Virus record (IMG/VR): IMGVR_UViG_3300037501_000255
Strand: one strand, 5' to 3'
DNA from: a virus
Taxonomy: Duplodnaviria > Caudoviricetes
DNA length: 64,000 nucleotides
Shown: positions 35,942-64,000 of the stretch, in pieces
Position numbering within the stretch: the stretch's first letter is position 1
Layout of the letters: every line of letters begins with the position of its first letter
Translations under genes and position numbers: made by a program
Notes under the pieces: generated by a model
Databases searched by the model: none
The model's input: only the letters and a program-made list of their open reading frames with translations
Told to the model about the DNA's origin: nothing

Positions 35942-36220
35942 TCATGTGGACACACCTTGGCGGATAGCGAGGGCCTCATCTTGCGTGAGGCTCCTGGGTT
36001 GCGGCTCCACGATAGGCTCCTCAGGAGCCATATCAGCACGGGCATGGGCTTTGCCGCACTCAGGGTGGAAGCGAACGGTGTTAATCATACCGTCCTCCAC
36101 ATACCGCTGCTCGCGATATTTCTCACCCTTTTTGATATGGGCCCAGCACCACATGCACTGCCAGATTGAAGATGTCCCAGGGCGGTGTGCGACGCGAGTG
36201 ATATCAGCAAGTACAGTCAT
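35942..36220 (-). CDS. Hypothetical protein with CxxC...H-x-x-C
   Basis: CMWCWAHIKKGEKY...RFHPEC. Confidence 0.65.
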   Translation of the reverse strand: MTVLADITRVAHRPGTSSIWQCMWCWAHIKKGEKYREQRYVEDGMINTVRFHPECGKAHARADMAPEEPIVEPQPRSLTQDEALAIRQGVST

Positions 36221-45871: not shown

Positions 45872-45898
45872 GCATTTAATCGACTGTCGATTAAATGC
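45872..45898. repeat. Perfect inverted repeat GCATTTAATCGAC-T-GTCGATTAAATGC
   Basis: 13 bp arms, 1 nt centre. Confidence 0.9.
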
Positions 45899-49624: not shown

Positions 49625-49701
49625 TGGTCGGCCCGGTGGGACTTGAACCCACAACCCTTCGATTATGAGTCGAACGCTCTAACCAATTGAGCTACAAGCC
49701 G
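49625..49701 (-). tRNA. tRNA with CAU anticodon (probably Ile2, otherwise elongator Met), CCA encoded
   Basis: Cloverleaf; anticodon arm TTCGA-CTCATAA-TCGAA; paired position 1:72 (not fMet); C4:G69 and C29:G41. Confidence 0.92.
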
Positions 49702-49709
49702 TCGAGATT

Positions 49710-49982
49710 TCATTCGCACACCCCCGACTGCTCAAGGGCCTGCTTACACGTCTCATCGCGAGCAGGCTGCCTGACTGCCTCGGGCACCTCAGCCAAGCCG
49801 TCACTCAACTCGCCACACGTCTCGGCAACGCCGGAATTGTCAGCATTTGCCTCACAGCAGTCACGAAGCTGATCGCAAACATCGCTTCCACAAAGTTCGG
49901 GAAATTCCGAGTCCTCGCAGGTAGCGAGAGGTTCGCAGGCAACGGCAAGCATCAGACAGCAGGCACTCAGGATCTTCTTCAT
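49710..49982 (-). CDS. Cys-rich lipoprotein
   Basis: Lipobox AVAC; VCDQLRDCC...TC...TC..AL...GVC. Confidence 0.65.
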   Translation of the reverse strand: MKKILSACCLMLAVACEPLATCEDSEFPELCGSDVCDQLRDCCEANADNSGVAETCGELSDGLAEVPEAVRQPARDETCKQALEQSGVCE

Positions 49983-50013
49983 AGGCACTCCTTGGTTATG
50001 CATTTGAGAGAAG

Positions 50014-50086
50014 TGGGACCGGAGGGAGTTGAACCCTCGACCAACGGATTAAAAGTCCGCTGCTCTACCAACTGAGCTACGGTCCC
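50014..50086 (-). tRNA. tRNA-Lys(UUU), CCA not encoded
   Basis: GGGACCG acceptor stem; GCGGA-CTTTTAA-TCCGT; GGTTCAACTCC T-arm. Confidence 0.93.
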
Positions 50087-50189
50087 ATAATCTGTTCACG
50101 CCAAGAGTCTGCCACTCCGTCATCGCTCAGAAACATCGCTGGCTTTGAGTAACAGCTATCGTAGTTCTTCATGCTAACCTCGTGATGAC

Positions 50190-50217
50190 AGAGTAGCGCA
50201 CGGCTCCGATCTGTCAA
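50190..50217 (-). promoter_or_regulatory. Sigma70-like promoter TTGACA-N16-TACTCT
   Basis: Read directly; abuts the 3' end of tRNA-Arg. Confidence 0.65.
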
Positions 50218-50218
50218 G

Positions 50219-50295
50219 TGGTGCGCTCGGCAGGAATCGAACCTGCGGCCTATTCTTTAGGAAGGAATCGCTCTATCCGACTGAGCTACGAGCGC
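50219..50295 (-). tRNA. tRNA-Arg(CCU), CCA encoded
   Basis: GCGCTCG acceptor stem; anticodon loop TTCCTAA; C31.A39 mismatch. Confidence 0.88.
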
Positions 50296-51921: not shown

Positions 51922-52236
51922 TCATTGTGCTTCTCCGCGTAGGTGGAAGTAGTCCGCCCTACAAGAATCATCCTGCAAATCAAACCACGTCACAAGCCGG
52001 CCCGCACGCTCTTTTACACGAATGCGGACACCCCAACATCCAAACGACAGCGGATAATTCATCATGTAAACGTAGTTGTGGTCGTTTGGATCTCGTACTG
52101 CCCACGCAGTCTCGAAGATGCTGCTATCCGGACCAGATTCAAGAAACGACACTCGGCAAGCTCCATGCGCTTTTTCAAGCCGTTGAATTAGCTGCTCTCT
52201 TGCCAACAGTGCGCTGGGCTTTGTGGTCATACGCAC
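51922..52236 (-). CDS. Hypothetical protein
   Basis: 104 aa ORF coupled to its neighbours. Confidence 0.55.
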   Translation of the reverse strand: MRMTTKPSALLAREQLIQRLEKAHGACRVSFLESGPDSSIFETAWAVRDPNDHNYVYMMNYPLSFGCWGVRIRVKERAGRLVTWFDLQDDSCRADYFHLRGEAQ

Positions 52237-53127
52237 TCCGCATCAGCAACGACCGCCTCATTTACCATCACCCTGAGTTGCGGCACACCATCAAGATCAT
52301 GCGTGACCACAAAGTCTCCGCTGTCGTCAGCCGCATCGCCAGTCTCTAGTTCAACCACCACACGATCATCGATCTGTGATCGGTACACGTAGATGGTCAT
52401 GCCGCAATCCAGTTGCAACTCGATGCCAGTAGAGGGAACCTGTACGCTTACAACGTGGCCCATTCTTCCTCCTGAAAGTCGGTAGTTTCTGGAAGCTCCG
52501 AGTCATCATCTGCCGCACGCAGGCGCTTCATAACCCCCTCAAGCTCAGCGATGGCCTTGTTTCGCACTTGCACCGAACCATTCTCAATGTCCTACAAGAA
52601 CGTCATAGCTGCACTCTATCGCAGCCACTCGGTATCCGGGCAGCCGCCCCACCACTCGATATCATCCGAATCTTCGCCGACTCGGATGAATGTATTCTCA
52701 TCAAGATTTTTGACAGCTTCCTGCACCGTACGAATTACCGCGTCATCCGTGTACCATTTGATGTAATCGTGAAAGTAAACGTGCTTGTCGGGGAATTGTT
52801 TCTGGCGCATCGTATCCAGAAACTTATCCACATCACTCATCTTCACATCGTTGTGAGCTGCCAGCTCCTCAAGCTCCTTGCGAAAGTCATCAAGATTTTC
52901 TGGATTGATTTGGAAGTAAACGCTAGAACGGTAGCTCGTTCATTCCTCCACGGGGTCGATAAAGAACCTGCCATCAACTGCATCAACCTGACCAATCAGA
53001 CCCTTGCCGAGGTCTAGATAGTCAAGCAAATCCAGCAGGTGATTGTAAGCATTCTCATTGATGACATGATCATCATCCAGTGCTGCGCGAGCAAACCGCA
53101 ACACCTTCTTTTCGAGTTCGTGACGGC

Positions 53128-63026: not shown

Positions 63027-63311
63027 TTAGTTGATCTCCACACATTCCCATGTCAGAAGAGCAGAGGCTCCGGCAATAATACCAATCAGAATACTTGAAT
63101 CAAAGAAGATTGAAGCTGCGAAGCCTGCACCTAAGCCCATGAGGGTAGCAACGATGAACTTATCGTGCGAGCGAGTCAATACCGGCGTGGGCTTCGGCAG
63201 AGACGGCATGTGCGGGTTGTTCTTGCGGTACATCGGCGGGTCGAGACTGTACAGAATCGGACGCGTTCCGGCGGGACGTGATTCCAGCTCCAATCCACTC
63301 GGTTCATTCAT
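63027..63311 (-). CDS. Hypothetical membrane protein
   Basis: Start MNEPSGL at 63311; two C-terminal hydrophobic helices. Confidence 0.55.
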   Translation of the reverse strand: MNEPSGLELESRPAGTRPILYSLDPPMYRKNNPHMPSLPKPTPVLTRSHDKFIVATLMGLGAGFAASIFFDSSILIGIIAGASALLTWECVEIN

Positions 63312-63585
63312 GATTGCATGCTCCTGATTTCCATACCCACACAGAGTATGAGCAAGTTTTCCTACACGAACCCCGGTCCATCCTTCCGGAATGGGATCTG
63401 CCCAGCCGGCCTTTCTTGCCTGCCGAGACAACGTGGGCCGACATCATGGTGATGTTCGGAATCTTCACGTCAAAAGGGCAGGCAAGATGTGTACCGGCTC
63501 AGCTACCGCAGTTGCTCCAAAAGGAGCGAAGAGCAGGAGGGTATCACCCTCCTGCACATGAGGTGTGTGTTGATGATGTTAGCGT
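63304..63585 (-). pseudogene. Small S4-like-motif protein interrupted by an internal 52 bp inversion
   Basis: Re-inverting 63425-63476 yields EPVHILPAETTWADIMVMFGIFTSKGQARKAGWADPIPEGWTGVRVGKLAH; start position approximate. Confidence 0.7.
63414..63487. repeat. 11 bp inverted repeats flanking the inverted segment
   Basis: TCTTGCCTGCC (63414-63424) and GGCAGGCAAGA (63477-63487). Confidence 0.92.
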
Positions 63586-64000
63586 CTACCCTCTTCTGGC
63601 TCAAATGATACCTCCATTCGGCGCAGCAGGTCAGTCTTGATCTGTCCCATACGCTGCTTCGTCACACCAAATCGTTCGGCCAGAACCTGCAGGGGCACAT
63701 CCTCGCAGACATGCTCTCGCAGAATTGCAGCCTCGCGCTCATTCACATCGAAGCGTGCGAGCACAGCACGGACGCGTTCTCTGGCAATTGTACTGACGGC
63801 ACGTTCCTGTGGCCCAGGGCTAGAGTCTGCAATGGTATCGAACAGTGCGAAGTGACGCTGATCGTCGCCAGCCTCACCAGAGATTCGACCGAAGGCGCGC
63901 ATGGTGCCACCATCGACCGCACGATTCTCGACATTCAGATATCGACCCTCACGCTTGATCGGCGCACAGCGAGACTGGCGAATCTCGGATTCCATCCACT
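63579..64000 (-). CDS. Sigma-70 family RNA polymerase sigma factor, C-terminal part (runs off the window)
   Basis: Region 4 HTH: NEREAAIL......PLQVLAERFGVTKQRMGQIK; upstream LFDTIAD..P.PQE. Confidence 0.75.
   Translation of the reverse strand, partial: WMESEIRQSRCAPIKREGRYLNVENRAVDGGTMRAFGRISGEAGDDQRHFALFDTIADSSPGPQERAVSTIARERVRAVLARFDVNEREAAILREHVCEDVPLQVLAERFGVTKQRMGQIKTDLLRRMEVSFEPEEGRR

Follow-up and report, generated by a model that had tools for sequence, protein, structure and literature searches.

A 52-bp inversion within an inactivated small gene downstream of a phage sigma factor

In this study, we asked whether a short DNA segment bounded by perfect inverted repeats switches the gene that contains it on and off, or records a mutation in a gene that is being lost. 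The segment lies in a 64,000-nucleotide stretch of viral DNA, the whole of which we call the window, and which appears to belong to a very large freshwater phage. A preliminary description had interpreted the locus as a clean ON/OFF gene switch working by recombinase-independent phase variation, and had named a one-off mutation among its alternatives.

Repeat arms and spacer compared with relatives

The two arms (63414-63424, TCTTGCCTGCC; 63477-63487, GGCAGGCAAGA) were located with a repeat finder as 11-nt sequences that are 100% complementary and 52 nt apart. Read on the minus strand, the arm at 63477-63487 is TCTTGCCTGCC and encodes (I)LPA, with 4-5 of its 11 positions matching relatives, and the arm at 63414-63424 is GGCAGGCAAGA and encodes the conserved GQAR of IFPSKGQARKAGW, with 7-9 of 11 positions matching relatives and the differences synonymous. 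As given, the minus-strand frame runs ...EPVHILPALLT and closes at an in-frame TGA (63467-63465), with a second at 63446-63444, both brought in frame by the in-place inversion of the 52-bp spacer (63425-63476, minus strand). Reverse-complementing 63425-63476 alone yields an uninterrupted frame of 177 codons, from GTG 63557 to a stop at 63027. The arms, the spacer, the closed frame and the frame opened by the flip are all as initially described, in coordinates and in sequence.

An 11-bp perfect repeat is by itself neither remarkable nor rare: with a spacer of 3-100 bp, such repeats are found at 4 loci in the window, compared with 1.1 ± 1.1 in block-wise shuffles. The three further loci are 52038-52091, 52219-52314 and 45872-45898. 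The repeats at 52038/52081 and 52219/52304 lie within intact minus-strand ORFs (51922-52236 and 52227-52463) whose frames are unbroken, and at 45872 the arms form a near-palindrome around a loop of 3-5 nt.

A frame open across 17 codons is, taken alone, weak evidence as well. It is the match to relatives, and not the repeat or the open frame alone, that raises the inversion above chance. In an ungapped stretch of a multiple alignment with the relatives L005, L007 and L010, the flipped spacer is identical to L005 at 40 of 52 positions (13/52 as given; flanks 73-75%), to L007 at 38/52 (as given, 17/52) and to L010 at 29/52 (as given, 11/52). The identities of the flipped spacer were reached by none of 20000 shuffles, and those of the spacer as given are at chance level. 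All five relatives with DNA (L005, L007, L010, L011, L012) have the coding orientation, and among the relatives compared the inverted state is limited to one lineage. At the protein level, the re-inverted window peptide ETTWADIMVMFGIFTSKGQ aligns with ETSWADLMVQFEIFPSKGQ of L005, and the flipped window reads VQEGDTLLLFAPFGATAVAEPVHILPAETTWADIMVMFGIFTSKGQARKAGWADPIPEGWTGVRVGKLAH... against the open frame VREGDALLLFGRFGATTVDEPVHHLPPETSWADLMVQFEIFPSKGQARKAGWDKPIPEGWTEVRVGKLAN... of L005, the homologous DNA being 68-80% identical; the re-inverted peptide can also be aligned with P0011, P0012, P0014, P0015 and P0019. Agreement of homologs with the re-inverted protein had been suggested as a check, and it is borne out: the 52 bp are genuinely flipped relative to the intact coding orientation of relatives.

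The repeat, in contrast, is not shared with these relatives. In the homologous sequence, complementarity between the two arms covers 4 of 11 positions in L005, 4 of 11 in L007 and 2 of 11 in L010, against 11 of 11 in the window, and the differences in relatives include synonymous sites (Ala as GCA, GCC or GCT; Arg as AGA, CGC or CGT). The conservation at synonymous positions that a maintained repeat had been expected to display is thus not found in these three relatives.

The small gene, its neighbours and two further lesions

In relatives, the position just after the sigma-factor gene is occupied by an intact gene of approximately 85-100 aa that belongs to the phrog_11006 family (E 6e-13 to 4e-14 for the relatives' proteins). 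A search with the L005 protein, followed by a three-sequence profile, identified 273 homologs, most of them 80-125 aa long and one a Vibrio jumbo-phage protein; INPHARED phages gave no meaningful DNA match, and in IMG/VR relatives were found with neither protein. In L007-L009 (P0011), L010 (P0012) and L011 (P0019) the sigma factor is followed by the small gene and then by the next gene, and in L012/L013 (P0015) the small gene follows a different upstream gene. Pairwise dN/dS values are 0.06-0.18 over 64-71 shared codons, with 0.09 for the flipped window against L005, and the family is real and under purifying selection. Several relatives (P0013, P0016, P0018, P0021, P0022, P0036) carry a Cys-rich N-terminal extension of about 80 aa on the phrog_11006 domain, with the motif FMHPxxxCxCCNP...HPSxxCxCC, which is probably a zinc-binding module.

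The window copy occupies the same post-sigma position, confirming that the gene lies immediately downstream of the sigma factor, and shares with the family a well-preserved middle block, HVQEGD...VGKLAH (63348-63560, minus strand; 71 codons after re-inversion of the spacer). This block is 76% identical in amino acids to L005 and L007 (75.7% over 70 aa to P0011 by BLASTP). It shows no extra decay, which fits very recent inactivation and also some retained use. Unlike its relatives, however, the window copy is a pseudogene with the inversion and two frameshifts.

The beginning of the gene is still recognisable within the 3' end of the sigma gene, where the minus strand keeps a GGAGG Shine-Dalgarno sequence and a TTG start at 63604-63602 (GGAGG-N6-TTG, 63615-63602), followed by MSQKRVDANII. 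This layout, the start and an in-frame (K/R)(V/I)DANII are common to L005, L007, L011 and L012. The (K/R)(V/I)DANIII strand is in frame in L005, L007, L010, L011 and L012, with GGAGG or AAGGAG as ribosome-binding site. Its N7 shows conservation of at least 90% across 70 aligned sequences, and an AF2 model of the family (pLDDT 93.7) predicts the N-terminal segment to form a strand (E5-11). Between this N-terminal block (63572-63604) and HVQEGD, the window carries a net -1 frameshift in a AACACACACC run (63562-63571, minus strand): the distance from the AAC to the GTN codon is 26 nt in the window, compared with 27 nt in L005 and L007 and 24 nt in L010. Because of this shift, translation from the conserved start ends at 33 aa (ORF 63503-63604).

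The other frameshift is a +2 (TG) insertion in CTCTGTGTGGG (63336-63346, minus strand), directly before the LW(I/V)W(K/N)P strand, a motif conserved in about 70 aligned family members; the inserted TG is missing in all five relatives with DNA. The family C-terminus survives as a remnant, WVWKSGACNHE and the stop TGA 63306-63304 (63304-63339, minus strand), in another frame than the middle block, with LWVWKPGAFDETQS and a stop in L005 and LWIWKPGERNESQRP in P0011 as counterparts. The frame of the middle block runs on after the insertion into the following 94-aa gene. Both frameshifts are identical across all assemblies of this phage and unique to the window copy when compared with the five relatives, and, lying at dinucleotide runs, they are typical of slippage. 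The re-inverted frame still has neither the conserved start and N-terminal strand nor the conserved last strand, so that a flip back would not restore the family protein because of the -1 and +2 lesions. This is one of the points on which the reading as a clean ON/OFF gene switch fails.

Upstream of the small gene, the 3' part of the phage sigma-factor gene (63579-64000, minus strand; stop TAA 63581-63579) runs off the window; the full-length protein in L001/L002 has 225 aa, contains Pfam Sigma70_r2 and matches phrog_351, RNA polymerase sigma factor. Downstream lies a gene of 94 aa with a predicted membrane helix (63027-63311, minus strand). Relatives P0002, P0003, P0004 and P0007 (91-101 aa, 32-51% identity) align with their first residues to ATG 63311, which is preceded at 9 nt by an AGGAG Shine-Dalgarno sequence (63325-63321). 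Since the relatives begin at this ATG and it has its own AGGAG, the 94-aa gene is separate and intact; it keeps its ribosome-binding site and is unaffected by the inversion. The longer ORF of 134 aa (63027-63431) was rejected as the gene, homologs starting at ATG 63311. The 177-aa protein of the supposed ON state is an artefactual fusion across two genes. Among 120 listed family matches, none is fused to the membrane protein, and the members of approximately 170 aa that we inspected have the Cys-rich N-terminal extension and not a membrane-protein fusion.

The small gene itself is dispensable in this phage group: L004 lacks it, the sigma gene there overlapping the next (98-aa) gene; L006 has an unrelated 79-aa ORF in its place; and in P0034 it is frameshifted. 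The 79-aa ORF of L006 had been considered as an ortholog of the broken gene and was set aside, there being no similarity. P0034 (112 aa, from a 185-kb JGI contig) is a family member apparently frameshifted just past IFPSKGQAK, which suggests that the gene has been lost repeatedly in the group. In the window, the region between the sigma-factor and 94-aa genes is a recently inactivated copy of this small, widespread phage gene.

Origin of the inversion and alternatives to it

Taking these observations together, we consider it very likely that the locus contains a one-off template-switch or short-repeat inversion that became fixed in a pseudogene with two more frameshifts; a one-off mutation is the better account of the locus than a switch. 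The central 52 bp were inverted in place between the two 11-bp arms, most likely because DNA polymerase switched templates twice at a short inverted repeat that was imperfect at first. Such template switching would invert the spacer and perfect the arms, leaving length unchanged and needing no recombinase. A partial repeat was probably present before the event, because both arms encode residues typical of the family (ILPA and GQAR) and the sequence TCTTGCC is native to L012 at the first arm. As only a 33-aa fragment can be made from the real start in either orientation, the inversion would be one lesion among three in a gene that is dispensable and on its way to loss, fixed in the phage population and serving no switch function. 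That templates were switched, and in what order the events occurred, is what we infer; from sequence alone, template switching and short-homology recombination look the same, and either arm may be the converted one.

The inversion belongs to a known class of mutation. Template-switch mutation and quasipalindrome correction have been described by Abraham and Hazkani-Covo (2021; PMC8604942), and the class also by Löytynoja and Goldman (2017; PMC5453318) and Mönttinen and Löytynoja (2022; PMC8794818). Natural spacer inversions at short inverted repeats have been documented with spacers of 2-5 bp, including yeast coding examples, and in one documented case a 5-bp arm became a perfect 16-bp arm together with spacer inversion (PMC8604942). 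The window resembles these events in that its spacer is reverse-complemented in place within coding sequence, with no length change and no recombinase, and in that the arms are perfect in the derived lineage (11/11) and show little complementarity in relatives (2-4/11). It differs in the length of its spacer, 52 bp compared with 2-5 bp in the yeast coding examples, in that the inversion adds two stops rather than a few amino-acid changes, and in its setting, a large freshwater phage and a gene with two frameshifts besides.

Among the alternatives, the one that survives best is nevertheless very improbable. It holds that the 52 bp flip via a hairpin or template switch, without a recombinase, and so toggle a 177-aa protein from GTG 63557. 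In its favour, the repeat is still perfect and the flip opens a frame, the middle block is otherwise undamaged, and template-switch spacer inversions have been described as reversible (PMC8604942). The opened frame, however, is the fusion described above, from which the two frameshifts exclude the conserved N-terminal and last strands and which has no parallel among the listed family matches, and its GTG 63557 has no Shine-Dalgarno sequence and stands at the foot of a 10-bp hairpin. Further, none of the three relatives measured has the repeat, and the matches listed from 5.8 billion proteins include none above 76% identity to the re-inverted block.

Orientation across assemblies argues in the same direction. 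Three further assemblies from three samples (L001, L002, L003; Logan SRR12686701, JGI 3300043267 and JGI 3300043177) match the window at 99.97-100% identity across 3.9 kb, and the segment is oriented alike in all of them. One orientation is therefore seen in four of four assemblies including the window, at the level of contigs, which drop minor variants, so that a minority of flipped molecules may exist beside it. The flipped junction was absent from metagenome_contigs and viral_contigs, from which the as-given junction, serving as positive control, was likewise absent, as neither collection contains this phage. With a single orientation in four assemblies and a repeat that three relatives do not conserve, phase variation is not upheld. 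Of the original proposal of a hairpin or template-switch inversion, what stands is the most plausible mechanism of origin, and what falls is its recurrence as phase variation. That flipping of the 52 bp at the repeat goes on at a measurable rate without a recombinase, and that the flipped form expresses an S4-like protein fused to a membrane anchor, we regard as highly improbable; if true, it would be a recombinase-free intragenic phase switch beside a sigma factor in a large phage.

A different reading would take the region as a structured non-coding RNA or terminator, with the frame that opens on flipping as coincidence. The minus-strand RNA of 63300-63580 does fold strongly (z = -5.5) and includes a composite hairpin of roughly 100 nt built around the 11-bp arms. 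This strong fold, however, is largely a by-product of the repeat generated by the inversion and of a hairpin in coding sequence, and an Rfam search of the region returned nothing below E 6.6. The same DNA has clear homologs in relatives that code for protein and evolve under purifying selection, and this homology already refutes a non-coding RNA as complete explanation; the reading is scarcely credible.

Phase-variable invertons, such as those of the Hin/Gin and FimB/FimE type and those in PhaseFinder-like catalogues, consist of a segment between inverted repeats whose orientation governs phase. The window is similar to them in that repeats flank a segment whose orientation decides whether the downstream frame is open. 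It is dissimilar in that one orientation is seen, the segment falls far short of typical invertons in length, three relatives measured do not conserve the repeat, and neither orientation yields an intact family protein. Inversion by a site-specific recombinase supplied from elsewhere in the phage genome or by the host has next to no claim on our belief. The window is part of a much larger contig, and a recombinase outside it is possible; the preliminary description had seen no invertase in the window, and a recombinase domain was indeed found in none of the 30 window ORFs of at least 150 aa that were scanned. To our knowledge, a 52-bp spacer is shorter than the known substrates of invertases. 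The arms, moreover, are plain coding sequence, different in each of the three relatives measured, and the gene is broken elsewhere.

Finally, a chimeric fold-back in library preparation or assembly is hardly conceivable, since, although inverted repeats can give rise to local misassembly, the three further assemblies come from different samples and pipelines and have the identical sequence including both frameshifts, and a 79-kb Logan contig crosses the site in the as-given orientation with a word depth of 17; the contigs of a second run do not reach the site.

The fixed inversion we favour does not reveal a new regulatory mechanism. It offers a clean natural case in which a spacer of unusual length (52 bp) was inverted, the arms were perfected and intact orthologs show the ancestral orientation, and it is useful for studies of template-switch mutagenesis. 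For annotation, the broken gene and the spurious ORFs of 134 and 177 aa can now be corrected. Where an inversion is found to open a frame, the full ortholog should be compared before a switch is named.

Other features of the locus

At the start of the middle block, within the codons for EGD...LLL, the minus strand contains the hairpin GCAGGAGGGT-GAT-ACCCTCCTGC with its 10-bp stem (63533-63555), beginning 24 nt downstream of the stop codon of the sigma factor. Despite its position inside a coding region, this hairpin persists in L005, where A>G changes leave G-U pairing intact, and in L011. It may serve the sigma transcript as an RNA 3'-end or translational element.

The flipped frame had also been credited with an S4-like motif. 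Pfam SYY_C-terminal matches the IFPSKGQARKAG segment at E 0.06-0.2 and 12-13.6 bits, compared with a cut-off of 27, and Foldseek returned the TyrRS C-terminus at a probability of 0.4-0.7. With VIA-align, E. coli TyrRS 351-424 scored Z 3.0 and YbcJ, Hsp15, RqcP and uS4 scored Z 2.4-2.7, with YbcJ and Hsp15 at 2.4-2.5, and Foldseek of the family model against the PDB gave no match at E ≤ 0.001. The S4-like assignment is kept as a weak but recurrent lead, by which the C-terminal half of the small gene product would possibly be S4-like (alpha-L).

A further candidate, a WD40 relic, was examined and rejected. The 134-aa ORF matched four giant WD40 proteins by phmmer, and BLAST hinted that the flipped peptide extends the repeat. 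A profile of 50 repeat units, however, gave just 7 bits, on GKLxHTLxG alone, and Pfam WD40 gave no match; the flipped spacer added nothing (7.8 compared with 7.7 bits), and 54% of shuffled spacers were as good. The WD40 match is an artefact of summed short motifs. The motif GKLAHTLCGYG (63348-63431, minus strand), summed over many repeats, produces phmmer WD40 matches down to E 7e-10 and could mislead automated annotation.

Members of the 94-aa gene family share an SGLEL motif at the N-terminus, a single hydrophobic helix and WECVEI at the C-terminus, and always follow the sigma-factor module (P0002, P0003, P0004, P0007); the sole hint of function is a very weak holin match (phrog_6384, E 0.11). 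The longest contig on record carrying the 94-aa protein (P0001) measures 367,953 bp. The window itself encodes ClpB, a radical SAM protein, DNA and RNA ligases, an MnmA-like protein, UvdE, RNA-repair proteins and three tRNAs, the last in a minus-strand cluster at 49625-50295 comprising tRNA-Met(CAT), tRNA-Lys(TTT) and tRNA-Arg(CCT). Its G+C content steps near position 36000, from 0.46-0.52 (1-36 kb) to 0.53-0.57 (36-64 kb).
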